Notes under the pieces: generated by a model | What the model was told of the DNA's origin: nothing | Databases searched by the model: none | What the model saw: the letters and a program-made list of their open reading frames with translations, nothing else | Origin: Amoebophrya sp. A120 | Taxonomy: Eukaryota > Protista > Dinoflagellata | DNA: 64,000 nucleotides | Assembly (NCBI GenBank): GCA_905178155.1 | Contig: CAJINV010000006.1 | Span: 4,408,339 to 4,472,338, forward strand | Direction: 5' to 3' | Program-made: the position numbers and the translations under genes | Shown: piece by piece, positions 3,301 through 40,600 of the stretch | Layout of the letters: every line of letters starts with the position of its first letter | How positions within the stretch are numbered: position 1 is the first letter of the stretch

Positions 3301-6240
3301 GCCTGGGAGGATCCGAACTTGTGATGCAGCCTGTTTCGGATCCTACAAAGATCTGTGATGCATAACGTGCAAAGAGGGCATAGCATTTCTCTGTGCCCAC
3401 TTCTCCGAGAAGAGACTCGCCATGCTGAGAGGGCATTTCATCTTATGCAGAACACGACGCATCACCAAGGAGCTGCAGAACCTGTGATGCTAGGCCCTGC
3501 ATTTTTCCAGACGTGGGGGCGCTTGGAAAATAAACTGCATGACAAATCTGGGAATTATCTCCCAGACCCAGACACAACTTTTGCAGTTGATAAAGGAAGA
3601 TCAGCTGCAAAAACAGCTTTGGCAATACAAGCAAGGCGCGGCGGGTGGTAATTATGGCTTCTTGTCAGGAGCACTGCACCCAGAAGACCACGAAGATCCC
3701 TGGACTGCCGCTCTTTTTTCGGAACAACAAGGTCTGACACCGGCGCAAGTAGGAGCGAGTGGAGACGATGAACACCAGCAGCAGGAGGCACAGCGCGATC
3801 GGGCGACTACACGAGGTGAAACTGCAGGAGGACTTCTAAAAGGGTCTACTGTCGTGGGAGGTGCTTTCGCAGGGACATCTTCAATGCAAGCACCGGGGGC
3901 TCCTGCTCCTCCGAGTGCCGTACCACGGGCAGGAAGCTTGTCCGCTTTGGCGCGAGGTGGACCTTTACAACATCAACAATCCCGCCGCGATGTAGCTTTG
4001 GACCCCCGGATTGCGTTCGATACTCGCATAGCAGAAGCGGCTCGACGAGGTATCCTGTGTAAAAACATCCCCACACCAGAGTCAGGATGGGGATTTTGCA
4101 ACACAAGCGTAGGAGTTTTGTGAGTCACGCATGACAAGTTGCACTCCGCAGTGTAGTGCAGGTTAGCAAGTGCAGCCGCATCACAGATTCATCTGCTCAT
4201 CCTGTTCACAGCATCACAAATTCCAAAATACGATTAGAAATGGCTCTCATGGGGATGCGCATTACAAGTCTTCCTGTCTTNCTTCCAGACCCAGACATTT
4301 TTACAGTTGATACGTTGAGAGCGCAAACCAGGACCCGGCTGGCGCTCCTACTTCATCCGCTGCAAGAGCCGTCGAGAAGAAAGAGGACACGCAAAACAAG
4401 CTGCAAAAACCGGGTCTGCCGAAGATTTTTAAAACTCTGACCGAAGAAAATGTGAAAATGTGGCAGGAACAAATGATGAAGCACAGCAGCAGCAATTCGG
4501 GCAGGGACGATCATGACCAGTACAAGGATATCAAATGCAAATATCGATAGTCTGGGCCTGGGAGGATCCGAACTTGTGATGCAGCCTGTTTCGGATCCTA
4601 CAAAGATCTGTGATGCATAACGTGCAAAGAGGGCATAGCATTTCTCTGTGCCCACTTCTCCGAGAAGAGACTCGCCATGCTGAGAGGGCATTTCATCTTA
4701 TGCAGAACACGACGCATCACCAAGGAGCTGCAGAACCTGTGATGCTAGGCCCTGCATTTTTCCAGACGTGGGGGCGCTTGGAAAATAAACTGCATGACAA
4801 ATCTGGGAATTATCTCCCAGACCCAGACACAACTTTTGCAGTTGATAAAGGAAGATCAGCTGCAAAAACAGCTTTGGCAATACAAGCAAGGCGCGGCGGG
4901 TGGTAATTATGGCTTCTTGTCAGGAGCACTGCACCCAGAAGACCACGAAGATCCCTGGACTGCCGCTCTTTTTTCGGAACAACAAGGTCTGACACCGGCG
5001 CAAGTAGGAGCGAGTGGAGACGATGAACACCAGCAGCAGGAGGCACAGCGCGATCGGGCGACTACACGAGGTGAAACTGCAGGAGGACTTCTAAAAGGGT
5101 CTACTGTCGTGGGAGGTGCTTTCGCAGGGACATCTTCAATGCAAGCACCGGGGGCTCCTGCTCCTCCGAGTGCCGTACCACGGGCAGGAAGCTTGTCCGC
5201 TTTGGCGCGAGGTGGACCTTTACAACATCAACAATCCCGCCGCGATGTAGCTTTGGACCCCCGGATTGCGTTCGATACTCGCATAGCAGAAGCGGCTCGA
5301 CGAGGTATCCTGTGTAAAAACATCCCCACACCAGAGTCAGGATGGGGATTTTGCAACACAAGCGTAGGAGTTTTGTGAGTCACGCATGACAAGTTGCACT
5401 CCGCAGTGTAGTGCAGGTTAGCAAGTGCAGCCGCATCACAGATTCATCTGCTCATCCTGTTCACAGCATCACAAATTCCAAAATACGATTAGAAATGGCT
5501 CTCATGGGGATGCGCATTACAAGTCTTCCTGTCTTTGCAAATCTGCACTACGGGGACGTTTTTATTCAGGATACGAGGGGCAGATCACTACGCAGAAGCC
5601 GCAGCAGGAGCAGCTGCACAGCTTGAGCAAGACGATCGGTTATTTCCCCACGACGACCACGACTCCCCTGAGCGGAGACAAGCCGTGGACCCTGGCAGGC
5701 TGAGTTGTATAAGCGATCGGAGCCGCAGCGCCCGGCTGAGGCCAGTGGATCTTGCCAGGGGACGGGGGGTGCCCCCGGGATACCCTGATCCGAGCCCATT
5801 CTTGAAAAGCATGAGCGGCTGCAGTCCGGATATGATGCACTGCACGAGCATGCAAGGAACCCCGCAGCAGCCTGATGGAGCCAGAAATAAATGGTCGTCT
5901 GAACAAGGGTATGAAATGCAAAAATGTCTGGGTCTGGAAGAATGCCAGGTTTGTCATGCATATGTTGCATGACACACTATGCCTGTAATGCATGGCCTAG
6001 CATCGCAGATTTTCATTTGGCTTCCTGATGCGTATTCCGCATGAGAAATGCCCTTCCCGGATAGCGCAAACTGGACTCCTCTTGCTGGTCATGCAATGCA
6101 GAACTTTTTAGAATCCAAAGACAGCATCACAAGTTTGTATTCTTCCAGACCCAGACATTTTTGCATTTCATAAAGGGCTGCAGGCAGGTGGTCTGGAGGG
6201 GCTCTTGCCTTTCAGCTTGCCTAGCGCCGATACTGACTAG
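325..6240 (+). CDS. 5'-partial spliced gene, low-complexity protein of unknown function (8 unique introner introns; 4282-5535 probably assembly duplication)
   Basis: Removing each element plus one 5-bp repeat joins ORF-track frames 148, 1170, 2265, 3539 and 5535 (e.g. ATG T|TG AAG; AAG GA|A GAT); ends LPSADTD-TAG at 6238-6240. No family recognised. Confidence 0.75.
550..861. mobile_element. Introner family E
   Basis: TIR TATGGG.GTGTCAGGA.CGAAATC; DR GCGGA. Confidence 0.9.
901..1168. mobile_element. Introner family A
   Basis: TIR core AAAAATGTCTGGGTCT; DR GATGT. Confidence 0.9.
2152..2440. mobile_element. Introner family C, diverged
   Basis: TAT..ATA ends, degenerate DR TCAGA/TCTGG, frame restored. 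Confidence 0.75.
2797..3057. mobile_element. Introner family A
   Basis: A TIR; DR CGTTG. Confidence 0.9.
3027..5535. repeat. 1.25-kb duplication across N at 4281 (probable assembly overlap)
   Basis: 3027-4280 repeated at 4282-5535; both breakpoints lie mid-introner. Confidence 0.8.
3274..3592. mobile_element. Introner family A (duplicate at 4529-4847)
   Basis: DR AAGGA. Confidence 0.85.
5306..5573. mobile_element. Introner family C (partial duplicate 4051-4280)
   Basis: TIR TATCCTG.GTAAAAAC..CCC; DR CGAGG. Confidence 0.9.
5910..6172. mobile_element. Introner family A
   Basis: DR AAGGG. Confidence 0.9.
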
Positions 6241-9011
6241 AGGTTTAGAAAGATAAGAACTCGACGTGCGGGCGGCTTTTTGGTCGTGTATAGCGCAGCT
6301 ATACTAATGTCTATACGTCTGCTCATCTTCCTAATTTTTGGGGAAGATTTTTTATTCGACACTTTTATTACTGTTTTTTTCAGCCTTGAAAATAAATCGA
6401 GCGTAGTTCATCTTTATGATATTTTTATCACTGGTTTCAAAATAGTACGTAAAATCGCAGAGAACAGTAGAGCTATGACAAGCAGTTTTTTCTTTTTCCA
6501 AAAAATCCAAAAAATGCGGCATCCAATTTTTCCAATATTAATCACATAAACGAGAATGCTCGACCACGTAACCGTGGCGGGGCCACGCAGCTACAAAAGT
6601 CCAAAAAATGAATAACGGGACAACTCGAGGAAGGTAGCGCGTACTTGTTGAGCTACTAAATTTTTTGACGGGAGGACGAGGACGAGATCTGCTTCCGTAT
6701 TAAATGAACAGAAATGGCACAAATGTAGAACGTCAAAAGAGCGCCAGTGCGGCGCTCGTTCTTTTTTTTTACTTTTATTCTCACGCTAGTTTATTGTTTC
6801 TCTTGATTTTTGAAGACTCTGACTCCCCTTTTGCTATCCAAAGCTACTTGATGCTGTGTAAAAGATTTTTTTACACGATCATGTAGCTGTACGACTGTCC
6901 TCGCCTCGCACTATCGACATTTAATGAAGTAACGTGGTTTCCAATTATTCCGTTTCATCTTCAACTTCATGACTATAATATCAGCACGTGAAAACATAAT
7001 TATACGTAGACCAAACTACTTCTACTACAAAATCGGTGACTGAGTTGTATTAAGCTGCGTAAGGCAAGTGCGTCGTGGTAGTCAGTTATACGACGCTGGT
7101 CTTTAACAAGAATGCATCAGTTACAGTATGATCTGCTATCGGCACTACATTCACGATCCGCACTTTTTATCCTTGCCTGTTTCTGCTGCTCTACCTGTAG
7201 CAGGCCGCGTCAAGATGGACGTAGGTTATTTCGTTTTGACTTTGAGTGAGAAATTTATTTTAGCGAGGAGGATGACAGCAGGAAGAAAGAATCGGATGAG
7301 GAGACATTTCTCCTTGCTGTTGTACCTCCGATGAAGGAAGCGAAACTTCGATGAAAGAAGTGATGAAAAAAAATAATTATGATCACTTCAACCTAGTAGG
7401 GCTGGAAGCAGCTATGCGGACAATTGATATCTGATAGCCTTTTTCACGCTATCTCCCCCTGATTTTTGTCCGCCCGCACTAGATGGTCATAATTTAGTTC
7501 TTGAAAGTTCCGCATCCGCACGCACGAGAACACACTATGTCATGGATGACAGCAGCAAAAAGGATAGCACTCCCGCGATTCAATATAAATCTTGCGCCTT
7601 TATTAATATTTGCTGTTGCCGACTGCTGTTATAAGTTACCGTGGTTTAGTGCCACCTTTTCAATTTCTTCTCACTCGCATGATGTGAACATCTCCTCCGC
7701 AAAAAACCGAATACCGACCACGTCTGGTGACCACGGGTAGAAGTAGCTGTTTGTATTATTTCTAAAAGTGAATAGAATACCGACATGTAAATATAGAAAA
7801 CATTTTTTTCATCTTGAATTGTACCGATATTAGAAGTGCGAGGCAGGATAGAACCACGTAAAATATAGAGAGTGATTAGAAGAGATTTTGTGCGACTTTA
7901 ATATTCCACTGCCTGGAAGATGATCTTTTGCGTCAAGACCATGTAGTACCATGTTGTAAAAAAACAAAAAGTTCTAACCGAGTTTCAACGAACTGCCAAA
8001 TATAGCGAACTGACACTTTGACTTTTGAAGATCAACTTCCCGAAGAGCTGCCAGCAGGTATTAGGGGATCGATGAAAAGCAAGCGACATCAGAAAAAAAC
8101 GCCAGCACAACAGTCTTCCCCAGGCCGCTTGTGAATTCTGTAATTTTATTCAAGAAGCAGAGCCACTATCTACAGGCTGTACAACTACAACCGCGAAGGA
8201 ATATAATTACACCGTAGCATAATTTTTACTTCAGTGTAAACAAAGAAAAAGATTTAGAGGACTCACCATTTTTTCGAGCCGGATGTTGAGCAGTTGCTTG
8301 GCATGATACGGACATCGAAATTGAAGCTGCCTTACTGTAAATAGACTTTATAATTTTGCAACAAGACAGAAGGTCACTCGCCAAGGGTCTAGACGAGCAA
8401 AAAGCCGCGAGCTACTGAGACAAGAGCACGAAAATTAGGGGCCCATGTAGTCTGATGCAATGACGATAATGTGACCACGACATTAGATTTTTGTGGTATG
8501 AAGAAAACTTATTTGGATTTTTTTATCCGGAATTAATGTGTATTTACTAATATCGTTGTAAATTCCAATTACATGATTCGGCGAGGCTACTGTGTTTTTA
8601 GTCTCAACCAGCTTCCATCAAAATCTAATGAGGCGCAGTAGACCTCCACTTCTATGTGTATGTCTACAACTTTTTGATCATTGTGTTGTCGACTGCGTGG
8701 TAAAGACAAACAAAAAACTTTTTGTTCAGGTACTTAAATGCGACCCGCTCCACAAGGTCGGTTGTCCGCAGAATTATTGGACCACGGTGCCAGGCCCGTT
8801 TCTTTTTTGACCCTTTTTGGTCAAAAAGAACCAGCCACAGCGAATCCTTATCGGAGCACTGAGTAAGAAGTACTTGGAGACATAGTATGAACCAAGAGGC
8901 GACGGATATTTATGATTAGCTATGATACCATATGACAGTGCACAACTCCCCGTCCCCCTGATTAATATTTACATTGCTTGACTTCCGGGTTCTGGTACGG
9001 CATACCCCCGG

Positions 9012-9188
9012 CGACAGGTGACCTCGACAGGTGACCTCGACAGGTGACCCCGACAGGTGACCTCGACAGGTGACATCGACAGGTGGCCTCGACAGGTGAC
9101 CTTGACAGGTGACCTTGACAGGTGACCTGGACAGGTGACCTGGACAGGTGACCTGGACAGGTGGCCGCGACAGGTGACGACGACAGGC
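9012..9188. repeat. 13-bp tandem repeat CGACAGGTGACCT, ~13 copies
   Basis: Directly visible. Confidence 0.95.
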
Positions 9189-9478
9189 GGGGCGAGAGGA
9201 TAAATCACAGGCGAGGTCAACGCCTGCGCTCATGTCGTTCTTGACGTGAAAAGCAAATATTTGCGACACAGAAAATGAAAAAGATAAAAGCGCAAAAAAA
9301 AAAACTGCGACGTCGCAGAAAATGGAAAATATCAAAGCGCAAAAACACAAAATGCCCCCACACAGAAAGAAGTTTTTGCGCTGCCATGCAAAAATGAAAA
9401 AGTGCGTATCTCTGCAATGCACGCCCAGGAGACGGCTTATATATGATGACGAGGCAGCACCTATTTCATCCTTTTGCC

Positions 9479-10679
9479 AGTAGCGCTTCGCGCACTAAGC
9501 CACCATGCGCGCGCCTGGTGTGAGGTGAAGGGCGGACGCTGTCCGCCCCGATGGCGAACACCCTTCCCCCACTAGCGTTTCGCGCACTAAGCCACTATGC
9601 GCGCGCCTGGTGTGAGGCGAGGGGCGGACGCTGTCCGCCCCGATGGCGAACACCCTTCCCCCACTAGCGTTTCGCGCACTAAGCCACTATGCGCGCGCCT
9701 GGTGTGAGGCGAGGGGCGGACGCTGTCCGCCCCGATGGCGAACACCCTTCCCCCACTAGCGTTTCGCGCACTAAGCCACTATGCGCGCGCCTGGTGTGAG
9801 GCGAGGGGCGGACGCTGTCCGCCCCGATGGCGAACACCCTTCCCCCACTAGCGTTTCGCGCACTAAGCCACTATGCGCGCGCCTGGTGTGAGGCGAGGGG
9901 CGGACGCTGTCCGCCCCGATGGCGAACACCCTTCCCCCACTAGCGTTTCGCGCACTAAGCCACTATGCGCGCGCCTGGTGTGAGGCGAGGGGCGGACGCT
10001 GTCCGCCCCGATGGCGAACACCCTTCCCCCACTAGCGTTTCGCGCACTAAGCCACTATGCGCGCGCCTGGTGTGAGGCGAGGGGCGGACGCTGTCCGCCC
10101 CGATGGCGAACACCCTTCCCCCACTAGCGTTTCGCGCACTAAGCCACTATGCGCGCGCCTGGTGTGAGGCGAGGGGCGGACGCTGTCCGCCCCGATGGCG
10201 AACACCCTTCCCCCACTAGCGTTTCGCGCACTAAGCCACTATGCGCGCGCCTGGTGTGAGGCGAGGGGCGGACGCTGTCCGCCCCGATGGCGAACACCCT
10301 TCCCCCACTAGCGTTTCGCGCACTAAGCCACTATGCGCGCGCCTGGTGTGAGGCGAGGGGCGGACGCTGTCCGCCCCGATGGCGAACACCCTTCCCCCAC
10401 TAGCGTTTCGCGCACTAAGCCACTATGCGCGCGCCTGGTGTGAGGCGAGGGGCGGACGCTGTCCGCCCCGATGGCGAACACCCTTCCCCCACTAGCGTTT
10501 CGCGCACTAAGCCACTATGCGCGCGCCTGGTGTGAGGCGAGGGGCGGACGCTGTCCGCCCCGATGGCGAACACCCTTCCCCCACTAGCGTTTCGCGCACT
10601 AAGCCACTATGCGCGCGTCTGGTGTGAGGCGAGGGGCGGACGCTGTCCGCCCCGATGGCGAACACCCTTCCCCCACTAG
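9479..10679. repeat. 92-bp tandem repeat, 13 near-identical copies
   Basis: ACTAGC recurs at 9571, 9663, 9755 etc.; the unit contains hairpin GGGGCGGAC-gct-GTCCGCCCC. Confidence 0.95.
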
Positions 10680-12120
10680 AGCCACTAAGGACGGGCACAA
10701 GGCCCCAGCGTGGGGACCCTGTCCCCACGCGTGGGTCTTGTTTGTCATGCAAAATACTCAGTCCACCCTTTGCCTCTTGGCACTGTTTGCATGACAAGTT
10801 CTGGTAGCCCAAATAGCACTACACTCCACGTGCAAATTTGTCATGCAGAACCGGCATTCTTGCTGATCCTGATGCTTGTATTGCCGTTCATGCTATACAA
10901 ATGAGGGGGAGGGGGAGTTGTGCACTCTCATATACCAAGTACGATCCAAGAGGCGACGGATATTTATGATTAGCTACGATACCAAGTATGCATCAAACTA
11001 CAGTGCGACGAGTCTTAATTCTACTAAAACAATCCGGCTCTGATGCTGGAGTAAATTATACTTAAAACACCTCCGAAGAACTTGTAGTGTGGTTAGGGAG
11101 GAGGTGGATCCATCGTGATTTACAACTTTTCTATCGAAGCGGTTATGAGGCGGAAACCATAGGAAGTCCGGATCGAGGCACTGACTAACTACTTGGAAAC
11201 ATATATCAAANTAGAGCCACTAAGGACGGGCACAAGGCCCCAGCGTGGGGACCCTGTCCCCACGCGTGGGTCTTGTTTGTCATGCAAAATACTCAGTCCA
11301 CCCTTTGCCTCTTGGCACTGTTTGCATGACAAGTTCTGGTAGCCCAAATAGCACTACACTCCACGTGCAAATTTGTCATGCAGAACCGGCATTCTTGCTG
11401 ATCCTGATGCTTGTATTGCCGTTCATGCTATACAAATGAGGGGGAGGGGGAGTTGTGCACTCTCATATACCAAGTACGATCCAAGAGGCGACGGATATTT
11501 ATGATTAGCTACGATACCAAGTATGCATCAAACTACAGTGCGACGAGTCTTAATTCTACTAAAACAATCCGGCTCTGATGCTGGAGTAACTTATACTTAA
11601 AACACCTCTTAAGAACTTGTAGTGTGGTTAGGGAGGAGGTGGATCCATCGTGATTTACAACTTTTCTATCGAAGCGGTTATGAGGCGGAAACCATAGGAA
11701 GTCCGGATCGAGGCACTGACTAACTACTTGGAAACATATATCAAATGCAAAAATGTCTGGGTCTGGAAGAATGCAAGTTTGTCATGCTTGTCTGGCATGA
11801 CTCGAGAATCTGTGTTGCATAGGCACGAAAGAGCCCTCTTTACTGTCACGCGAAAAGGCAGTTTGCCTTTGCCATGCGGAATACTCAAGACATGGCAGCC
11901 ACAAAATTTGTCATGCTTATCTGCGTACCGCGGCGCGTCTATCATTCACTTTTAACATTACAAGTTTCCAGACCCAGACATGTTTCCATTTGATAACATA
12001 GTATGATCCAAGAGGCGACGGATNCCGCGGCGCGTCTATCATTCACTTTTAACATTACAAGTTTCCAGACCCAGACATGTTTCCATTTGATAACATAGTA
12101 TGATCCAAGAGGCGACGGAT
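10677..12120. repeat. Duplications across Ns at 11211 (534 bp) and 12024 (96 bp), probable assembly overlaps
   Basis: 10677-11210 ~ 11212-11745 (a few SNPs); 11928-12023 = 12025-12120. Confidence 0.7.
11739..11995. mobile_element. Introner family A
   Basis: DR ACATA. Confidence 0.9.
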
Positions 12121-16500: not shown

Positions 16501-17127
16501 TGCTTCATGGCGAAACTGTGGCGCTCTTGTTGCTTTTATGCAATACAGATTTTTAAGGAATGGTGGACACGCAACACAGATTCAACCTTTCCAGACCCAG
16601 ACATATTTGCGATGCATATGCTGTTCGAAGTCCTCATGCGCACGGTTGGAAAGGACTATGACAAGATTACTACAACAAGAGCTCCTACCTCTGAACATGA
16701 GCCGAAAAAAACACACCAGCACTCGGAAGTGAAAGAAGCCGAGCGAGTGTTGCTGCAAGTGCTGCAGACTTGCGTCGATTTGAACCCTTTTTTGAAGTTG
16801 TACGGGGAAGAAAGTGTGGCGAAAGTGCTGCGGTTCTTCGTGAATATGAAGACACAGATGAAAGGTGGTCGTGAGGACGAAAATCTACGAGAGGGCCCTC
16901 GTGCTGACCACCCTGTTCAAGAAGTACGTGCTGTCAGTACGAGTCACGCGACCTCCTCGTCCTCGCACGCTACTACTCTGACAACAACTTCATCTCCGGA
17001 TGTTCCTGCGACAACTTCTTCTTCAACTTCTAGAGGGGCTGGGCCTGGGGAAACTAGTACAACCAGAAATAACTACCGTCGCACCTGGGCCAGCCTACTT
17101 GACACAGTGCGGTTTGATCGCATCTAG
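13565..17127 (+). CDS. Spliced gene, Ser-rich protein of unknown function
   Basis: ATG 13565; removing 13917-14238 plus TCAGC joins FQ-LVTERE into the 707-aa frame. The last junction (chimeric element 16228-16618) does not restore frame by the simple rule, so the final exon is tentative. Confidence 0.65.
13917..14238. mobile_element. Introner family B
   Basis: DR TCAGC. Confidence 0.9.
16228..16618. mobile_element. Chimeric introner (C left end, A right end)
   Basis: Mismatched TIRs, no matching DR (GATGT/TGCTG). Confidence 0.7.
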
Positions 17128-19577
17128 CGTCCATGTGGAGTTTGATGCGTAGTAGGAGCGGATTTCATATATGTTCATAGGTTTATTCCAGGAGCGAAGA
17201 AGGTAAGAGGTGTCTGGAATGAATCAGATTTTAACTCATCGCAAATAAGGTTCTTGACAAAAAAGGAAGAGCAGTGCCCTTTATTTGGATAGACTAGCAA
17301 CTTTTTAAATTTTCCGCGTATAATCATCTAGCTATAGGTAGCGCGCTCGTTGAAGCTTGCCTGTGCTTGCAGTTTGCAAGGCTGCGGGTAAGTAGTCGGG
17401 CCAGGGCTTTTGATACCAGGCCGCTATGTAGTTTTTCATAGCAAAAAAAAATACAACGAAATTTTGTTTTTTTTTCCCTATTTGTTGGGCAAGTAAGTAA
17501 CTTAAAAGCGACAATTTGTTTCTCCGAATAACCACGTGCGAAAGTACTATATCTTTCTAGGATAGAAAGTCACGATAGTACAGCCCGATATTAGTTTTTG
17601 CAGCTGTATAGGCTCGCACGAGATGAGGCGAACGAGTGCGGGCTTTTTTTTTGTCTTTTTTACGCTTCAAGTGAAGTAGACGATGAGCTAGGTAAGAAGA
17701 GCTACACGTTGCGATTATTATATCGAGACTTGCTATAGCGACTAAGTGTATGGCGTTTTGATTTATTTTCCCGCTCGTTTAATTCTATCACTTCTCCGCT
17801 TGAGAAATAATACAAATAAATTGATTCGAGAAAAGCGCCCAGCATGATTTTCCTTTTATTATTGATGTTTTTGTTTTTCGTCCAAGACTAGATGTAGTAT
17901 CAAGAAGCGGGGCCGCATGCAGATGGAAGCATGTTTATAGTAGGAAGCCTAGCCCTGAAGATAAGGATAACCAGAGCCACACTTTATTTTCCCGGGATAG
18001 TATGAAGCATCAGACGTCTTTTTTAGGACATCTAATGCAACGTGAAAACCCAAACGAGCAGCTGCAGGTCCAACGCGAAAAGTAGTTGTCGACCATTTGT
18101 ATGCCTCCTGCCAAAATGGTGATGGGAAAGGAACAAACCGTGACTCAATATAATATCCGAAATCTCTAGCCATGAATTTTTGTACAATTTTTACATGCTA
18201 TCCAACTTTTACCAGCCACTACCGTACTCACTATCCGTATTTACTAGCCTATGAAGTTGTTGTACGTAAAACTTCAAGAACAATTCCGGCTCACACAATT
18301 TTTATACCGGACGAATATTATACAATTTTTATGCCGCGCAATCTGTAGTTGTCTTCCTTCGTATTGAATATTGGTTCGGTGACCGAACTGTAATACGAAC
18401 AGATCCACTTCTCCTGAGAATGTTTCTTTAACAACTGCTGGTGCATGTATCATTTTATTTTTTAGGACAACAAAAAGAACAAAGTAAAAATCAAAAACAA
18501 ACTCTACATCAAGGTCAACAACAAACTCACACTTCCTTTTATCGCACTAGGCGGCCCACCGATGGCGAAGATTCTTCTAATAAACGCACAACTTCATGGG
18601 AGGACACAATATACGATACTTCGATAGTACCGTCAGCACGATGAATCTGTTTGCAGAGAAGTTCGGTGGGCCTGCAGATTGTAGAAGGAACAGTATAGTT
18701 TTTGGAGCCCAGGCTAATTTCTAACTAACAGGGGCGAACGAGAAGAAATCGGAAAAGAATGAATCAAGAGAAGGAGTGGGGGAAAAATTATAATCTTCGA
18801 GTTGCACTGCTGCTCTGTTTCACCGTGCCGCAACTTCCTCGAAGTGGGTGCGACCTGGAGCTTCCTTAATGTGCCGGGGGGAGTTTTGTTCGACCACTGC
18901 TAGCCCGATTTTTATTCGTTGCCGTCGCTGGTGGTGCTGCTTTTGCGACCACAAGGGACTATAATATGACCAGAACCAGATCAGGACCACCAGCTCTAAT
19001 ATAATTGCATGACTTTTTGTTCCAATGCACTTCCATGATGCGACAAAGATATGAGCCGGAGTTGTCGAAGGTCTTCGTCTACCACTACTCTGCAAAAGAG
19101 CCGACAGCAACAGGCGCGTTATGAGGGTCGATTGACCATAACCATTCAGCCCATTTAAGCCATTCGTAAAAAATGAAAAGCAAAATCGTAGGGCCTTGCT
19201 CTCCGGGGACTTTTCCTGGGGGCAGGCTGGTTGCCAGTATAGACCTACCCCTCGGCGTTGCGGAGCCTGTCTGCCTCGTCTCCGAACTTCGGGGTGTGGT
19301 CTCGCAGCTTAGCGGCGGGCTCCCCGTCATGGCGCGGAAAAATAACCGAAAATGACAATGGGCCGAGCTGGAACGAGACAGCTTTTTGATGAACAATTGC
19401 AGGCGTAGCTACTTCGTTTTGACTAAATTCGGACCATCTTTCGTTGCTGCAAAATTGCGAGCTTCGGTACGTTTTTTCGATTTCGGCCGCCCCGCGCGGC
19501 GAGAGAATTTGTTGAGAGAGGAAAAAAAGCAGCGCCTTCCAGCCCAAAAAAAAAAAATCTAGCTCAAAGCGCGCGCT

Positions 19578-19880
19578 GGCCATCCGGGCCATTCGAGCCA
19601 TTCGCGTGGGCCGCCCGGGAACGGCCGGCGCACCGTTCAGGGGCAGTCCATTCGACCCATTCGCGCGCGCGAACGGCCCGAATGGGCTGAATGGGTCGAA
19701 TGGATCTAACGGCCTGAATGGCTCGAGTTTCCGGTCCATTTAGGCCTGTAAGGTGGGCCGCTCGGTCCATTCGGGCCCTGCGAATGGCCCGAATGGGTCG
19801 AATGGCTCGAATGGGTCGAGTGGCTCGAATGGATTTCCGGTCGTTTTCCGAATGGATCGAATGGCCCGCGGCTGAACGGG
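19578..19880. repeat. 9-mer (CGAATGGSY/GCCATTCG) repeats in direct and inverted orientation
   Basis: gccattcgagccattcg on the left; gaatgggtcgaatggctcgaatgggtcg on the right. Confidence 0.75.
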
Positions 19881-20282
19881 CCCGCGGGCCGGCTGGGCCG
19901 GTCTGGTCCGAAGGCCCGGCCGTCTGGCCGGAAGCGCTGTGGCGGAGGGCCGGGCGCCTCGTTTGCGTCATATTTTTTTGCCTGCTTGCAGGACGACGGA
20001 ATCGAAAATGCCATAGGAGCGGAGGGGAGCACTGGCGGGCGTAGCTGGTATCTTGCGCTGCATGCGCGTGGGCCCTTTGATCGGGCCAAGCCTCGGGTCG
20101 TCGCTTCGCCACCATGGCGTCTCGGCTTGGGTTCACGGGAGTTGTGCGAGGCGTGGCGCACCAGGTCCCAGGTGGAGATAATATGGAGCAACATTGTTGT
20201 CGGGCTGCGTGGAGATGAATGGCCGAAACGTTCAGCAGTGCCACGACCGGGAACACAGATGGCGGACCAGCTGGCCCCGGGA

Positions 20283-20297
20283 CCATTTTGGCTCAAG
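20283..20297 (+). other. 15-nt match to the 3' part of the dinoflagellate spliced leader
   Basis: CCATTTTGGCTCAAG vs DinoSL DCCGTAGCCATTTTGGCTCAAG; not followed by GT, so not an SL RNA gene. Confidence 0.45.
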
Positions 20298-21560
20298 TTG
20301 GTTTGCATTGAAAATATTTTTTTTTTTCTTCAATGGCCTAAATAGCTCGAATGGTTATGGTCAGTCTGACCCTCTTGAGGCGCGGTTCTGGGAGTGCGAT
20401 CTAGCAACTACTTGATTTTTATTTGGTGAAGTAGATGTAGGCCATGACCAGTCATTGACTTATTCTAGCAGCACAGTCAGGGCGCTGCAAGTTCTTTGGT
20501 GCGGATGGAAAGGCTCTCCATCAAAGATCTATCGATAAGGAGCAAAACACGCAGAGAGTATTTTTGATTGAAAATCTGCACTCGCCCGATGGACGCACGA
20601 GACGAAATTCCGGCACGAGTATTAATTCATCACTTCTTCAAGATCTATCGCTGGTACAACAAGAACTTTAGCGCAACAAGAAGTGACCAGTCCGTCTCTG
20701 GATCTCTTCGTATTATTTGTGCCCTGGTTCTTTCTCTGGATCTCATCTTTTGGTAGTTGGGCGTCAGGAGCTCTTTCTCGATCTAGTACGAATTTTATAT
20801 GATTTTTCGCCGCAGTTGCAGTAGCAGGAGCACGACCACGAGATCTACTGTAGGCATATGTTTTCACTTTACTTACGCATTTTCGTAGCAATATGGTTTT
20901 TATTCTTAAGCTCGAACGCATTGCAATAAAATTTTTCACCTACCAAAAAACCACACAGGCCGCTCAACTTCGAGGGGACTAAAAATTTATAAAGAATTTG
21001 TGACTGATGTAGATCAATCAAGATAAAACGAACCAACGACAACATTTCTGCTGTAGCGGTTTGTGTACTTCTACAAGAATAGCACGGAAAATTTTCAAGA
21101 ACACCTGAAAAAGCGCCTTCAAGAAACTAAGCTCTAGCACCACTTATAGAAAAAGAACAACATAAAAAGGCGATAGGGCAATTTCACTGATTCAATTTCA
21201 CGACGACAATTCCGTAGTCGAAGCAAGTTTTTTATCTTTGATATCACGACAAATGTTATCTTGTGTCATCTGTAAGTGTTTTTGTTTCCAACTTCGAAAA
21301 TAAGGTAATAAAGCGAGCATCTCTACTGTACGTGTAAAATTAAATGTATGCCCGGGCAGTAGCAGGCTAGCGAGCCTGTGAGTCTAGGCTGAGGCTGGTC
21401 GGGCGGTATTTTATGTCTGTCCAAGCCCAGCCCTTCTCCGGTAGCCAGGGGCTTGATGATTGTGAGGGTGAACCTCGTCCCGTTCTGGGTCGAAGTTTGT
21501 TTCCTTTCTCTCTTGCCCCCAGGGAGTAACGCCCCTGCCGTTGGTAGTAAGTTTTGGTCC

Positions 21561-21795
21561 ATCCGCCTCAGGAAAGTGTCTCTCATCCGCTTGTCGGAAA
21601 GTTTGGTATCATCCGCTTTGCGGACAGTTTTGGATATCCGCTTTGCGGAAAGTTTAGCCCAATCCGCGTTGCGGACTGACAGTTTTTGGCTTGACCCAAT
21701 CCGCTTTGCGGACTGACAGTTTTTGGTTTGGCCCAATCCGCTGTGCGGACTGACAGTTTTTGGAATGAGTTTCTGGTCTATCCGTTGAGCGGATA
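21561..21795. repeat. Array of ~8 ATCCGC-NNN-GCGGA hairpin units (24-43 bp spacing)
   Basis: e.g. atccgctttgcggactgacagtttttgg, repeated with variation. Confidence 0.85.
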
Positions 21796-22245
21796 GCTTT
21801 TGACCTCCCTGATGGTGCTCTCGCTGTCAAGAACAGCGAGAGTACGTAGATCATGCGGTCTCGCCTTGCTTTGGGAAGGAGGGTCGTTTGGCACTGGCGG
21901 TTCGAACCCGTTACCCTTGCGAACTTTTTCCCAAGCCATGGCGCTTGGCTTTTGGTGGTATTATGGTCTTTATTTTGATCCTCAAAGAAATCCCATTGCA
22001 ACGCGAGGCCGCAAGGCTCAGCCTAGATCTAGAATGAGGCTCTCTTTTAGTCTCCGCTCCCTGGAATGATTCCGATTTTGGGTATAGTGTATTGGACAGC
22101 CAGTGGCTTTGGATTTTACGGGTGCTCCACCCTTGTTTTCATTTTCCCTTCAGGCTTTCAGGTTGCCCTTTTTGGCTTTTACAGTGCTAGAGCTTGTCTA
22201 TTTCCTTTTCACGCGGTTCTGGTCCTAGTTTCTGTCTGGTACACG

Positions 22246-23286
22246 ATGTTCAACGTTATCAAGAATTTTCACAAGAAGTTGGAAGAAGACAAGAAAAATG
22301 CCCCTCCGCCTCAGGGCCGCGGGTTGGCGGACCGGGTTTCCCGGGTTTTAGAAGATTCATCTCGGGATGGGTCGTCTCAGTTTTCCTTTCCAGCAACCGG
22401 GGACTCGCGAAAAACGCGAACGTCGACACAGATGAAGACAGCATGCAGGCTGGCCTCGGACGCAACTGCTTTGTCGCAGTGCGTCCGCTTTCTTGGGGAG
22501 ATAACGTCCATGGCTTCGGCGTCGACCACGAAGTCGCAAATTCTCAAGTATGAACGTATCACGCGGGCTAGCGGGGAGGAGCCCTGGCCTGCCACTTTCA
22601 GGACGGTGGAGAATTTTATCGCGGTAGCTTTGACTACTGGATACAAAACCTTCGATGATGATGTTAGCCTGGTACTTAAGCACGCGCGGAAGGGCGGCCA
22701 GTTTGCTCTGACCGATGTGGAGGAAGGTTTTGTGTGGTCTTTGCTTAGTAGCCTACGGCGAAAGGGAGTTTTTAACCACAAGCAAAAACCTCCAGTTTTT
22801 CGGGCCCACATCATGAAAGTTCCGCGCGCGGAGGATAGGGGCAAGCTTTTGCCGGCCTTCCTTTTCGGGCTTCGCAAGTCGGAAGCCTTGCAGATCAATA
22901 AGAGCATCAAGATTTTGTGGGGTCAGCACTCCACTGGGCTGGATTTCCGCGGGGCGGTTTTGAAGTCGAATAGTACGGCGGCGACGCGGGTAAAGTGCGC
23001 ATGTAGTAGTGGTTTGGGCCGCAGTTCCTGTCTTCATGCGTATCGGGGAACTCTTGACGCTGTTCAGGGAATCGACGTCGAGCACTTGCTCGATAAATAT
23101 AGCATGCAGACTACCTCCCACTCCTTACGGATAGGAGTCCTCCTCGCGATGCTCTCCCAACGCTACACAAATTTACAAGTGACAAGCCACTTGAGGTGGC
23201 AGAGTCCTGTCGTGGTGATGTATTATTCGCGATGTCAGGGCTTATTTGAGGCCCCCCAATATGATCTGACTTGCCCGATCGCTTAG
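22246..23286 (+). CDS. Tyrosine recombinase (DIRS/Ngaro/Crypton-like)
   Basis: FLFGLRKSEAL (R), TSHSLRIG (HxxR), HLRWQS (W), MYYSR (Y); intronless; ORF open from 22066, ATG 22246 preferred. Confidence 0.88.
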   Translation: MFNVIKNFHKKLEEDKKNAPPPQGRGLADRVSRVLEDSSRDGSSQFSFPATGDSRKTRTSTQMKTACRLASDATALSQCVRFLGEITSMASASTTKSQILKYERITRASGEEPWPATFRTVENFIAVALTTGYKTFDDDVSLVLKHARKGGQFALTDVEEGFVWSLLSSLRRKGVFNHKQKPPVFRAHIMKVPRAEDRGKLLPAFLFGLRKSEALQINKSIKILWGQHSTGLDFRGAVLKSNSTAATRVKCACSSGLGRSSCLHAYRGTLDAVQGIDVEHLLDKYSMQTTSHSLRIGVLLAMLSQRYTNLQVTSHLRWQSPVVVMYYSRCQGLFEAPQYDLTCPIA

Positions 23287-23640
23287 TCGATCGCTGAACA
23301 AATGCGATGCTTTCTCCTGTACCGAAATCAAGCGCGATGCTTCTGGCGCCACAAATTGGGCCCCTGGGTTCCTTTCTTTCTCATTGCTTCCGAAATTTGG
23401 AAGGCACGAAAATTCCCCTGTTCCTGTTCTGAGAGATGTAAAATCTATATCTACGCTGCGCTTCGACGTACTTCTTGTGGGGTCCTTCTTGGGAATCCGA
23501 CTGCTCAGAATCTCTTCCACTTTCTCTGATTTTCTTTCTTCTGTGCTTGGACAGGGACTTTTGGTATCTGCGTTGCAGATTGTAGTTGTGCATCAGAGTT
23601 ACTTTTAGGTTCACTAGCCACCTACCACTTCTTTTCCACC

Positions 23641-24459
23641 ATGCCTGAGCAAGTTTTGTACGAAGAGGCACTTGATGGCCAGGATCCTCCGGCCGAAGCG
23701 GGGAAGGATGCAAACGCCGCGGCTGTTGTGGCGTTGTTAGGCTCCCTCGTGGGGAAGGCGACGAAGGAGGTCGCTGACGAGGAGAAGGATGCTGAAGCGT
23801 GCCAGCCTCAGCACGGGCTTTGTGAGGGCGTTCTTCTGTCGGCCGGCAATTTTTCCAAGGCTTTCGGGTCTATCAAGAAGCGAGGCGTCCACTTTATCAC
23901 TTTCAAGGATGAAGCAGACATTATTGGGTTTCTGGGAGTCTTACTCCATGCGGCGAAGATGGAGGCCCACCTGGCGAATAATCTCGGGCTGTCTTTGCTG
24001 TTGCGCTACAGCGTGTATCCGATCTGGGTGACGCTTTTCAATTTTATGTGGAAGGAGACCTCCACGCTTGTGGTGGAGAATTCCGCTCTTCTAGGTGGTC
24101 CGAAGGTTACGAGCACGGAGCCGGTTGATGTTTACGCCCGCCGGGTGTGGGTCTGGCTTGTGTCCGTGGGGATGTCCCGCATGGACACTCTGACTGGTCG
24201 GGGGAAGCCTGCCGACAAATCTGCCCTGCCTCCGCCGCTCAAGAAGTTCCGCTATGGCGAAGGAAAGATGGACGGTCCCTGTGCGATCTATTTACAGCAC
24301 GGGCCTTGCAGTCGGGGAGCCGCTTGCCGCTGGCAGCACAAGGCCCCGGAAAGTTTGGAAGCCCTCAAGCAAGTCGTCACGGCGAAGGGTTGGAGTTTCT
24401 GCCCGGAAGCCGCTTGGAAGAAGCATGATAAGCCGTCCGCTAGTTCCACCAAGAAGTAA
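23641..24459 (+). CDS. CCCH zinc-finger protein, possible Gag-like ORF
   Basis: CAIYLQHGPCSRGAACRWQH = C-x8-C-x5-C-x3-H; intronless 272-aa ORF inside the element. The Gag role is inference. Confidence 0.7.
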   Translation: MPEQVLYEEALDGQDPPAEAGKDANAAAVVALLGSLVGKATKEVADEEKDAEACQPQHGLCEGVLLSAGNFSKAFGSIKKRGVHFITFKDEADIIGFLGVLLHAAKMEAHLANNLGLSLLLRYSVYPIWVTLFNFMWKETSTLVVENSALLGGPKVTSTEPVDVYARRVWVWLVSVGMSRMDTLTGRGKPADKSALPPPLKKFRYGEGKMDGPCAIYLQHGPCSRGAACRWQHKAPESLEALKQVVTAKGWSFCPEAAWKKHDKPSASSTKK

Positions 24460-25621
24460 GGCGCTGCCCTGTTGCAACATCTTGTGGGATGTCGCCGGGG
24501 TGGACCTGTGCGTACGTATTTGCTCTGTGGTCGGCAGATGAATTCTTTTGCGTAACTCTGGCACGCCGTCTACTGTTTTGCGCTAGTGAAGAGGTGCGCG
24601 CCGCTTGGCTGTCTAGTACACTCTATCTGCGAGGGCTGGTGTTCATTTCTTCTTCTTGGCCTGTGGTGGCAGTTTTTCCTCGATCGGTTTTCGTCCGCTC
24701 GGGTTTTGGTGTTTTCACTTTCTACTACCAGCCACTTGTCGGTCCGGCGTCGTCGTCACGCCCTCGTCTATGGGGCGCACCGGTTGTCCCAAATTCATCG
24801 TCTGGTCGCTAGCGTCGTGACGGGTTCTTTGGGCTGCTTCGGCGTATCGGGCCTCCGCCGGTGGGGTAGGTGCTTCCAGGGCGCCTCCTTGTACGACGCA
24901 GTGGGAGATGCTCCCATCGAGCGATCATCCAAAGGGTGATCCTTCCGCTGTGACTGAATAAAATGTATGCCCGGGCAGTAGCAGGCTAGCGAGCCTGTGA
25001 GTCTAGGCTGAGGCTGGTCGGGCGGTATTTTATGTCTGTCCAAGCCCAGCCCTTCTCCGGTAGCCAGGGGCTTGATGATTGTGAGGGTGAACCTCGTCCC
25101 GTTCTGGGTCGAAGTTTGTTTCCCCGCCCACCCACCCGGTTTTGTTTCCGCAGTTACTTCGGATGGGTCGCTAGGTCTCGCGCCGCTCCAGTTTCTTTTG
25201 GGGTAGGACAGAGGCCGAAATATGTCTTCCACAGCGAGGGTAGGTGCTTCCAGGGCGCCTCCTTGTGCGACGCAGTGGGAGATGCTCCCATCGAGCGATC
25301 ATCCAAAGGGTGATCCTTCCGCTGTGACTGAATAAAATAATAGTTGTGACACGGAGGGACGACGTCTGCTCGACGTCCCTCTGTTTAATCTTTTCTCTAT
25401 TTAATCGCGAAGTGAGGTGGAAGTATCGAAATCGATCTGCTTGAAGATGGTTGCCAGCGAGCAGAACAAGGTAGATTTTGAGTTCCATACTTCGTTTCGC
25501 AATTATCTTTTGGGGTGAGTAGGTAGGAAGAGGAACAACATCAAAAATTTAAGATTTTTACGCTCTTAGCATTCAGCACTTCGTAGTTGTTGAAAGAAGC
25601 TACAATTCTTCAGACTCCAAG

Positions 25622-37600: not shown

Positions 37601-40600
37601 GTACCGGCAGTTATGGATGTGTCAGAGTTGAAATCGACAAAGTTGAAATAATTTGTCATGCATAAAATGGATGCCAGTTGGAACCCAGTTGCCAAGTGGC
37701 GCATGACAAATTTCGGTGGTCTCTAAATCGAGTTTGTCATGCTGCTTGGGCAAAGAAGAGCGATTTTCTCATGCTACTTTAGCAGCTCGAGCTGTAACCC
37801 CAAACAGGCTTACAATCGGCCTCACTTGCCTGCTCTGCAACACACGCACCTCGGGTCATGCATTTTATGCATTACAGATTATTTCAACTTTGACGATTTC
37901 AACCCTGACGCTTCCATAGCAGTAGACCCGAAGTTTTTGTCGCCGTTGGTGGAGTATCAAATGTAAAAATGTCTGGGTCTGGAAGAGTGCGCGATTTGTC
38001 ATGCAGCTTTTCCATGACCCATGAGGTCTGGAATGCAGGGCCTAGCATGACAGATTCTGTGCGACCTTTCTCATGCCTATACTGCATGAGAAACTGCCTC
38101 CCGACTTGGTCAAAACTGGACGACTTTTGGTAATCATGCAACACAGATTTTTGCATGCTGCAGATTTAGCATGACAAGTTGCCTTCTTCCAGACCCAGAC
38201 ATTTTTACACTTGATATGGAGGTGCGTACGGAGCATGGGTCGCCAGAAATAACAGCGCCGGCGGCCTGGGAAGGAGGAGATCATTCTCGTGGTTCTCGTC
38301 CAGAAGGTTTTGTAGCATCGCTAGCTTCGCTGAGTTTGCTACGAGAATGCACAAGAACTCCCCTTCGTTCTCATTTCTCATGCAAAACAACAAGTCCATG
38401 CTTTCCTTATACACGAATCAGCATAAACAAATTTGTCATGCAAAAGCGGCACAACTCTTGCTGACGCTTGTATTGCTGTTCATGCAAGAACTTTTATACA
38501 AATGAGGGGGAGACCACGAGCGGGGAGTTGTGCACTCTCATATTTGCCGCCCGGATTTTCTATCAAATGCAAAAATGTCTGGGTCTGGAAGAATCCGAAA
38601 TTTGTTATATGCTGTTTTTGCATGACACAGAATGTCTGTCATGGAAGCCCTAGCATCACAGATTTTTAGAGGCCTTCCTGATGCCTATTCCGCATGACAA
38701 ATGCCCTCCACGCGTAGCACAAACCGGACTCCTCCTGCTGGTCATGCAATACAGAATTTTTTAGAGTCCAAAGTTAGCATCACAAGTTCCAACCTTCCAG
38801 ACATCCAGGGATTTTTGCAATCCATATTTTCGGGTCCCTCATCGCGGTCGTCTTCGCGAAGTAGAGTCTCGTCTCCACTTATCGCCAGAAAAAACTGTTT
38901 CACTGTAAACTTGTAATGCAGAAAATGTATTTCACAAGTGCTTGTCTTGCTACACATGCAAGACAGTGGATCGTCAGCTGTGTTTTATTCCCTTAATAGG
39001 AACCTTGCATGGCATATTTTCTCTGTTATGTAGAACAAACTTGTGATGCAAAACCTGCAAAATCTTTACAGTCGTGAAACACTTCTTTCGTTCGATACTA
39101 CTAATATCTTCGAGCGCGGCCTCATTAGCCTCGTCATTAGCCGCGTTCTCGCGCTCTGAACATCCATCGACAGCAGCGGCTGCTGTACAGGGAACTACTA
39201 CATCGAGAACAAGCAGAACAAGCAGTGTCATTTATTACAATGAAAAATGCCCCCACCCCCGAACTTGAAAGCATTTGTATTGCAAATCTTTCCAAATGAA
39301 ACATTCGCCCTCTTGCGTGTATTAGCATCACAGATTTCCGATCGTGAATAGCAAAAATTTCTATTGCAAAAGATCCCAGCAAGAGCGGTGCTTGTCATGC
39401 AAGGGATGCGAAACACGACTAGAATCTGCATCAGAAAGATTCGTACTCTTTTCATGCATGACAAAAAGCTTTCATTTGGAAACTTCGCATCACAAATTGT
39501 TGCAATTTCAGGGGTGGGGGGCATTTTTCACTGTCATATCACTCCTTCTAGTAGAGATGAGGCATCAGGTCCTCGGGCCGGCTATCAAATGTAAAAGTGT
39601 CTGGGTCTGGAAGCTTGCCAGGTTTGTCATGCATATTTTGGAAGACTCATGATGTCTGTGATGCATGCTCTAGCATGGCAGATTTTTAGAGGCCTTTGTG
39701 ATGCCTCTACCGCATGAGAAATGCCCTCTCGTCCGGGTAGCACAAACTGGAGTTCTGTTGCCGGTCATGCAATGCAAATTCTTTTAGAATCCAGAGACAG
39801 CATCACAAATTTAGAATCTTCCAGACCCAGACATTTTTGCATTTGATACCGGCGCGCCGGGATCGTACGCCCTGTTAGGTGATTGGAAACGACAGACGCG
39901 CGGCGCGGTAGAGGCGTACTCGCAATACATCTTAACTTTCTCGGGCGTGGGGAAGTTGTTGCAACTGTACCACGCCTATGCATTGCAAACATCGATCTGG
40001 GTCTGGAAGGGTGGAACTGTAATGCTAATTCTGGATCGTGCAAAACTCTGTGTTGCATGATGCCAAAAGCTGTCCACTTTTGACCAAGTTGAGAGGAGGT
40101 TTCTCATGCAGGATAGGCATGATAGGGATCTCACAGAATCTGTCATGCTAGGTCCTGCATTCCAGACGACATGGATCATGGAAAATCTGCATGACAAGCC
40201 TCGAAATCTTCCAAACCCACCCATAAATTTGCATTTGATAACACCCCCGCGACGAGAATTTTTTCTCCGACAGGAGGGGAGGAAGACAAGGACAACACGT
40301 ACATCGACGTGGGACTCTTCGCGCACTATTTGTTAAACACGGGCACCACTTACACGCCCTTAATGGTGTGGAACAACTTTCACGATTACGATGAAGAGTT
40401 CCTCTTCGCCAAACCTTTCGGCTACCGTAATCTGCTGAAAACCTGGTTCGCCGTGCCGCCAATGGATCGTGAGGAACTACCTGCTGCTCCAAGTTCAACA
40501 CGAGGTGGAACTACAGACGCACACTACCACCAGTTGCACCACGACGAACCCCAGGATGTCGTGATGGATTTAAGCAGCGTCAGCGAGACTGCGTTTGTCC

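Follow-up and report, generated by a model that had tools for sequence, protein, structure and literature searches.

A tyrosine recombinase element with split direct repeats and no reverse transcriptase gene in Amoebophrya sp. A120

A 64,000-nt stretch of the Amoebophrya sp. A120 genome (assembly GCA_905178155.1, contig CAJINV010000006.1, positions 4,408,339 to 4,472,338, forward strand), referred to here as the window, contains a 3997-bp mobile element at 21342..25338 that carries split direct repeats, a tyrosine recombinase (YR) gene, and a gene for a protein with a CCCH finger, and no reverse transcriptase (RT). The ends of the element are built like those of Ngaro and PAT elements, and its enzyme content is like that of a Crypton. 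The repeat anatomy, the recombinase, the absence of RT, the conservation of the gene pair, and the presence of gene-less relatives are established by the observations given below. The element is read here, with a probability of roughly 0.55, as a member of an old, semi-autonomous split-direct-repeat YR retroelement lineage that borrows an RT and supplies recombinase to its gene-less relatives. Coordinates are those of the window, and all element features are on the + strand.

Structure of the element

The element has the order A1-[ORF1-ORF2]-B1-A2-spacer-B2, where ORF stands for open reading frame, and is an intergenic insertion, with a gene ending near 17127 on one side and coding sequence from about 26094 on the other. 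Its GC content is 0.54, against 0.41 and 0.46 in the flanks. Repeats A1 (21342..21504, 163 nt) and A2 (24961..25123) are identical at 163/163 nt (blastn within the window, E 1e-81), whereas repeats B1 (24864..24964, 101 nt) and B2 (25238..25338, 101 nt) differ at a single position, which is A at 24893 and G at 25267 (same search, E 7e-46). A2 and B2 are separated by a unique spacer of 114 nt (25124..25237) with no match elsewhere in the element or the window; related sequence is present in other family members, with joints at 25033>25153 and 25069>25179. The arrangement A1..B1-A2-B2 corresponds to the definition of split direct repeats (PMC9210276, PMC6681497, PMC8547959). Terminal inverted repeats, as found in DIRS-like elements, were absent among the 10 repeat pairs listed. 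The non-coding gaps inside the element measure 741, 354, and 405 nt.

The sequence AAAT forms the first four bases of A1 (21342..21345), the last four of B2 (25335-25338), and, as the end of B1, the overlap between B1 and A2. The left junction reads GTAAAATT-AAAT-GTATG, the internal junction GAATA-AAAT-GTATG, and the right junction GAATA-AAAT-AATAGTTG, and the internal junction is therefore what joining the right end to the left end would give. An empty target would be predicted to read GTAAAATT-AAAT-AATAGTTG. The left AAAT is the probable crossover overlap, and six contigs from sequencing run X1 and two from X8 meet foreign flanks exactly at this point in A. The initial annotation had described a 4.0-kb layout with A1 at the left, B1-A2-spacer-B2 at the right, near-identical repeats, and a B1/A2 junction produced by end joining with AAAT at both ends; the repeat coordinates, the blastn matches, and the junction sequences all agree with this description. 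The identity of A1 and A2 may reflect recent activity. An introner-like family with long inverted ends has at least 20 copies interrupting host genes in the window (for instance, 2797-3057, 37955-38216, and 59808-60069), none of which lies inside the element, and both element ORFs are uninterrupted and intron-free within this introner-rich genome.

Tyrosine recombinase and CCCH protein

ORF1 (22246..23286, 346 aa) encodes a YR with Cre-like core-binding and catalytic domains. Its start is most likely the ATG at 22246, because an RTS(K/T)QM motif upstream of the second methionine is common to the related proteins P0007 and P0010. All six catalytic residues of the YR are present (R210, K240, H292, R295, W318, and Y327), and in an alignment of 50 rows they are kept in 44, 47, 38, 44, 43, and 41 rows, respectively, the misses being mostly gaps. 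A Pfam scan of the window protein matched no YR family, so the identity of ORF1 as a YR rests on fold and motifs. A profile of 50 family members matched Cre at E 0.004. The AlphaFold model computed from the 50-sequence alignment reached a pLDDT of 92.5, against only 31.9 for a single-sequence prediction. The top Foldseek matches of the model were Tre/Cre, with a TM-score of about 0.6, and VIA-align superposed it on Cre with Z 15.1 and a root-mean-square deviation (rmsd) of 3.7 over 240 residues. As modeled, ORF1 is a Cre-fold tyrosine recombinase with the full catalytic set. The initial annotation had named the R/HxxR/W/Y motifs, followed by a CCCH-finger ORF and both free of introners, and had let its proposal stand or fall with the recombinase fold; the catalytic residues, the open frames, and the fold all bear it out.

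The YR family comprises 49 clusters at E 0.001 or better, mostly from short metagenome contigs, and takes in one protein of strain A25. Weak matches to PF00589 were obtained for 8 of the 47 relatives scanned and for P0003, and a weak PHROGs match for 2 of 50 family members. Neither DUF3504 nor GCR1_C, the domains of CryptonA and CryptonF, was matched by Pfam in the window protein, five close homologues, or (at E 0.05) the 47 relatives. In a quick tree of 38 rows of at least 250 aa, which covers only the unnamed family and so says nothing on DIRS versus Crypton affinity, the window YR grouped with Amoebophrya AT5.2 and marine metagenome proteins (16 rows, SH-aLRT 99). One A120 gene model, P0005, has an 86-residue N-terminal YR scrap that is 80% identical to ORF1 and fused to unrelated sequence, and is likely a decayed copy.

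Further YR loci were sought in three contig collections. None was confirmed among 85 candidates in viral_contigs or 31 in genome_contigs, and 2 of 155 were confirmed in metagenome_contigs, where one contig (L001) is too short and the other (L002) carries a truncated YR without an RT on the contig. The truncated gene (L002:3729-4259) is a 5'-truncated YR of the window family (39%) reduced to its catalytic half, and no ORF of at least 90 aa follows it. The same contig has a second, intact YR of 384 aa and of a more distant type (276-1430, 31 bits to the family profile), which is flanked by copies of a direct repeat of 42-60 nt (133-174, 1825-1866, and 3080-3121); with no RT on the 4.8-kb contig, it is possibly another RT-less YR element. 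A search of viral_contigs with the A-end pattern gave eight loci, all of which were chance matches of 18-25 nt and were rejected.

ORF2 (23641..24459, 272 aa, start ATG 23641) encodes a protein with one CCCH finger and no other known domain. The finger (24280..24339) has the form C-x8-C-x5-C-x3-H, with C214, C223, C229, and H233 of ORF2, and is invariant in 3/3 homologues. PF00642 scored above the cut-off in both AT5.2 homologues (P0006 and P0009) and below it in the window ORF2, and matches in PDB were to CCCH fingers only. Atlas matches were to unnamed clusters at 0.92 with low recognition and serve as a lead only. Homologues of ORF2 were found only among AT5.2 proteins, all beside a window-type YR. 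From its finger, ORF2 is likely an RNA-binding protein.

Absence of reverse transcriptase

A six-frame scan and Pfam found no ORF, no motif, and no room for an RT or RNase H in the element. The single [YF]xDD string lies within the YR frame, and other frames reach at most 181 aa. The 405 nt between ORF2 and B1 hold no RT remnant, the element has no methyltransferase domain of the kind found in PAT-like and DIRS-like elements, and no ORF precedes the YR at the gag-first position. The scan, Pfam, and the gap lengths thus agree with the earlier proposal of an RT-less content limited to a YR and a CCCH protein. None of 47 YR-family proteins scanned contained an RT or RNase H domain, which says little because a DIRS-type RT is normally a separate ORF. 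The YR-first gene order had also been called unusual; no ORF was found ahead of the YR, and the order is less singular than supposed, with precedents in VIPER and in the DIRS elements of Symbiodinium.

Conserved gene pair in other Amoebophrya

The closest YR is AT5.2 g7586, 47% identical to ORF1, and the adjoining gene g7585 encodes a homologue of ORF2 (32% identity, E 2e-32). At a second AT5.2 locus, g18990 holds a YR and an ORF2 homologue in one gene model, 90% and 67% identical, respectively, to those of the first locus. The window YR is 47-50% identical to the two AT5.2 loci and the window ORF2 30-32%. A transcript-derived peptide from Ameob2, P0007, consists of the YR, about 125 residues of read-through, and ORF2, with no RT between them, and ends at the ORF2 stop. 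The YR-then-CCCH pair recurs in AT5.2, and so the pair is old; by sequence comparison, an RT-less YR-then-CCCH core is common to the window element and AT5.2. The gene neighborhoods of the two AT5.2 loci differ. According to the parts of the PMC6482013 supplement covered, g18991 and g18992, next to g18990, are an aspartyl protease and cullin-3, and g18988 and g18989 are without annotation. At the first locus, g7584 has 1417 aa and g7587 has 474 aa, of which the first 400 residues were available.

The same supplement lists at least 14 further PF00589 genes in AT5.2, most of 90-270 aa; an annotated RT adjoins none of them. YR elements lacking an evident RT may be common in the genus.

Gene-less relatives

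Run X1 contains 0.90 of the words of the element and may be the run from which the window itself derives; its contigs were compared at 85% and 80% likeness. The coding region has a flat depth of 45.4, like the flanks (39-42), and falls in one unbranched contig of 2984 nt at 80-85% likeness. No second copy of the YR or ORF2 was present in X1 at 80% likeness or more; together with the unbranched contig, this means that X1 holds no near-identical parent of the element. In the same run, per-bin depths in the leader and right end are 200-1100 and rise to about 4300 at position 21902 and about 7200 at 24988, and the 3' trailer segment common to relatives (24732..24863) has a depth of 182-298. The element ends and one 5' segment reach 10-160 times the single-copy summed depth. 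With a coding region at single depth and deep ends, many relatives in X1 share the ends without the genes.

One X1 copy at depth 45.6 is internally deleted and keeps YR scraps (joints 21932>22861, 22928>23013, and 23045>24851). The six X1 contigs that meet A exactly at AAAT have flanks unlike one another (agreement 0.53), and those flanks that were listed end in AAT, like the target of the window copy and the end of B. The B/A junction is also spanned by a single-depth contig of 604 nt (about 83% likeness) that then rejoins the spacer; the four-repeat layout is thus inherited and is not a chance tandem. Relatives diverge in A after about 75 nt, and the A tail differs between subfamilies. Three X8 contigs hold only the A hairpin; the RNA nature of X8 is a guess, and these contigs were not used as evidence of expression. 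RNA runs X5 and X6 gave 0 matching reads, a result that carries no weight on expression, as neither run demonstrably contains the organism.

Structured leader and hairpins

The 5' leader contains seven small palindromes of the TCCGC..GCGGA type, 25-43 nt apart (21586..21794), the count and spacing of which vary among relatives. Rearranged joints among relatives fall at these palindromes, and the region has a predicted folding z of -2.81. The leader segment most widely kept by relatives (21872..21935; summed depth about 4300 against 45) contains GGTTCGAACCC, which we take to resemble a tRNA T-arm or a Pol III B-box. The predicted hairpin in this segment was not significant (z -1.25), ARAGORN found no tRNA in the element, and Rfam gave no family, with two matches under the gathering score. 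The segment is a candidate packaging, priming, or promoter signal.

A second predicted hairpin is closed by the B/A junction (24958..25033), where ATAAAAT pairs with ATTTTAT inside A. It comprises the conserved part of A and the last three bases of B, and its predicted energy is -34.6 kcal/mol (z -3.85, 1 of 300 shuffles equally good). When host flank was substituted for B, the predicted basal stem was shorter and z was -2.36. The 3' end of the hairpin coincides with the end of family-wide conservation in A, and eight X1 contigs and one X8 contig have loose ends after 25033-25035. The B repeat itself is predicted to be strongly structured (z -3.84). Of six variable places in the junction hairpin, three are unpaired in the minimum-energy fold; 24988 and 25004 pair together and could be compensatory, and a change at 25018 would break a pair.

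Proposed mechanism and alternative explanations

Under the reading as a semi-autonomous retroelement, an RNA running from A1 to B2 would be bound by the ORF2 protein through the structured leader and the repeats. A borrowed RT and RNase H would copy this RNA, and the internal B1/A2 junction would restore the ends, which would make A1 and A2 equal within a copy even though subfamilies differ in the A tail. The next product would be a DNA circle in which the ends meet as B-AAAT-A. The YR would recombine this junction into an AT-rich site similar to AAT(A/T)AAAT, so that each end has one AAAT and the target is not duplicated. Gene-less relatives that retain the A hairpin, the leader segment, and B would depend on this same YR. 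The Ngaro/PAT cycle and the end-regeneration model for split repeats are reportedly due to Goodwin and Poulter, and the cycle above is drawn by analogy with Ngaro/PAT. DIRS-1 has an RT that acts in trans, and its cDNA is single-stranded (PMC7192593); TOC1 (PMC5613634) and SIRE (PMC6681497) are examples of non-autonomous elements with split repeats. The initial annotation had left a choice between a non-autonomous YR retroelement and an RT-less lineage; through the RT-less core shared with AT5.2, the two are partly supported as a merger.

Several points weigh against the borrowing of an RT. The RNA intermediate is supposed from the Ngaro/PAT analogy, and no RT donor was seen in the AT5.2 annotation rows or in X1 at 80% likeness or more. 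A gag-like role for ORF2 is suggested with caution because ORF2 lies behind the YR and no gag homology was detectable in Pfam, PDB, and Atlas comparisons. P0007 shares 99-100% identity with g7586/g7585 and therefore does not count as an independent locus. The AT5.2 pairs are known from gene models alone, which leave the element ends outside view, and the large neighbors g7584 and g18989 (1274 aa) could hide a divergent polymerase gene (Pol). In 13,366 rows of AT5.2 annotation, which include 14 PF00589 genes and 63 RVT_1 genes, no gene of the first kind is within 3 gene numbers of one of the second; the nearest pair is 4 gene numbers apart and has a LINE-like RT, and so no ordinary DIRS-type partner is evident in these rows; the check is weak because the RTs of Symbiodinium DIRS fit Pfam poorly (PMC5890265). 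The neighbor count cuts both ways, giving no Pol beside the YR and no RT donor either. Depths in X1 are sums over contigs and not copy numbers, and the X1 comparison missed the 80%-identical scrap P0005, which means that coding relatives diverged below about 80% escape it.

It is unlikely, in our assessment, that the element arose by deletion or splicing from an autonomous YR-ORF2-Pol parent, or from one with Pol in an intron, with the AT5.2 pairs being the front of longer, RT-bearing elements. Dinoflagellate DIRS elements do shuffle their gene order and have an RT that is hard to detect (PMC5890265, in part), the family readily makes internal deletions, as the X1 joints show, and large unannotated genes adjoin both AT5.2 loci. 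A parent of this kind is disfavored by the single unbranched coding contig with no second YR or ORF2 copy, by the 405 nt behind ORF2 in which no RT remnant is left, by the end of P0007 at the ORF2 stop, by the lack of RT or RNase H domains in the 47 family proteins, and by the aspartyl protease and cullin-3 genes that neighbor g18990. An origin from a near-identical parent by splicing out of the RT was considered and is unsupported in X1. The initial annotation had allowed that other copies might contain an RT ORF; no second coding copy was found in X1 at the likeness used, no RT donor was found, and a Pol behind ORF2 keeps the low standing just given.

About as improbable is an RT-free, Crypton-like DNA transposon whose YR excises and integrates circles through AAAT. 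Its split repeats would come from a small A-spacer-B circle inserted in its own site, or from copying at the DNA level, possibly of a folded single strand. Integron attC sites are single-strand recombination sites, and the junction hairpin could be one as well. In the parts of the literature covered, a YR without RT and a 4-bp core fit Cryptons (PMC3212892), active Cryptons gain copies and use a short shared core (bioRxiv 2022.05.23.493040), and DNA transposons usually show one coding copy accompanied by many relatives with internal deletions (PMC3212892); the rows of the AT5.2 table contain no YR-RT gene pair. Cryptons are without long direct repeats, however (PMC3212892), and the spacer is not derived from the element interior. 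The B-A-spacer order is kept in a diverged copy, where a chance tandem insertion predicts otherwise, and the identity of A1 and A2 extends over the subfamily-specific tail, whereas relatives part from each other after about 75 nt. The CCCH finger speaks for RNA, as do the G-U-rich stems, and the Crypton domains DUF3504 and GCR1_C were matched neither in the window protein nor in its 47 relatives. Far less credible is an inactive or domesticated remnant, whose genes would persist through use by the host or simply because they are young, and whose ends would be moved by an unrelated element. The coding copy is single in X1, and there are two among the AT5.2 proteins found, as a remnant would have it, but the terminal repeats are perfect, the ORFs are free of introns in an introner-rich genome, the catalytic set is full, and the gene neighborhoods differ at the AT5.2 loci.

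A broader proposal, which we put forward tentatively, is that split-repeat YR elements in Amoebophrya and related marine parasites form a class that has at no time depended on a cognate RT. Such elements might be DNA transposons whose ends are rebuilt by way of a folded single strand from a copy of the junction inside the element, or one half of a two-part retroelement whose RT comes from an unrelated or RT-only partner. If true, the class would connect Cryptons with DIRS-type retrotransposons as a link that still lives, and none of the members of its YR family (about 50 clusters at 50% identity) would have been described so far.

Other features of the window

The region upstream of the element (19560-20300) is GC-rich, has many short GAATGG/CCATTC direct and inverted repeats, and may be another mobile element. 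Tandem arrays with a 92-bp unit (about 13 copies, 95-97%) and a 13-bp unit are located at 9375-10778 and 8987-9226, respectively. Exact tandem duplications with periods of 1255 and 535 bp at 3027-5419 and 10677-11511 represent either recent duplication or an assembly artefact. The GC-rich islands at 49400-52000 and 60900-62300 (0.64-0.73) have internal repeats, and long frames are open on either strand.

Comparison with known systems

Split direct repeats have been regarded as a hallmark of YR retrotransposons that encode an RT, and Cryptons are defined by having no long repeats; the element stands in between, and the two genes of its RT-less pair are conserved in another species (47% and 32% identity). 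Compact at 4 kb, intact-looking, and with one coding copy and many dependants, it permits direct tests of the role of split repeats, of a DIRS-type life on a borrowed RT, and of the DNA form and site used by a eukaryotic YR. The split-repeat mechanism rests on models, and the only experimental work found concerns DIRS-1, which is of the inverted terminal repeat type (PMC7192593, in part). The YR family is also a source of uncharacterized Cre-like recombinases with a 4-bp core. In the literature covered, which left Repbase and most subscription papers outside, no RT-less YR-plus-CCCH split-repeat element and no YR elements of Amoebophrya were described, and the main text and one supplement of PMC7789003 (Farhat 2021), as far as covered, mention neither recombinase nor DIRS.

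With Ngaro-like and PAT-like elements (Xenopus DIRS-53_XT and Cafeteria Ngaro types 1-4), the element shares split repeats, an internal circle junction, a Cre-like YR of the PF00589 type, and the apparent absence of a target-site duplication. Its split direct repeats and its YR with catalytic R-H-R-Y are those of the Ngaro/PAT/VIPER-like group, whereas it lacks the RT/RNase H and leading gag of autonomous DIRS-group elements. It also differs from Ngaro and PAT in having no methyltransferase or hydrolase, and its sole other gene, with a CCCH finger, stands behind the YR. SymbioDIRS elements of Symbiodinium share a dinoflagellate-lineage host, the A-coding-B-A-B repeats, and a separate YR ORF in variable order, the YR and Pol being shuffled among them, and unlike the element they encode Pol (RT, RNase H, and often a DNA methyltransferase) (PMC5890265). 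VIPER and SIRE of trypanosomatids share split repeats, a YR ahead of RT in VIPER, and short repeat-only relatives; VIPER is gag-YR-RT/RNase H and SIRE encodes nothing, and the element differs from both (PMC6681497).

Intact split repeats without an RT are also found in the element as in TOC1/SIRE-type elements. TOC1 of Chlamydomonas has split repeats with a short unique spacer, and to our knowledge it does not keep an intact YR. The two ORFs of the element are conserved between species, unlike TOC1, and the element has no known partner. TOC1, the non-autonomous partner of TOC3, is, like the element, an RT-less member of a YR retroelement family, and it is active (PMC5613634). Cryptons share a YR without RT, a 4-bp terminal core, and many non-autonomous deletion derivatives (PMC3212892). 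The AAAT core falls within the 4-6 bp of Crypton terminal direct repeats, whereas the long direct repeats of 163 and 101 nt and the lack of DUF3504, GCR1_C, and C48 peptidase set the element apart; no CCCH gene is reported for Cryptons in the passages of PMC3212892 covered. Cre of phage P1 shares the two-domain fold and the R-K-H-R-W-Y set at 14% identity, and no loxP-like perfect inverted repeats surround the AAAT core of the element. On this sequence-based comparison, the element is best filed as a new variation on the non-autonomous YR elements with split repeats, one in which two genes have been conserved over a long time.

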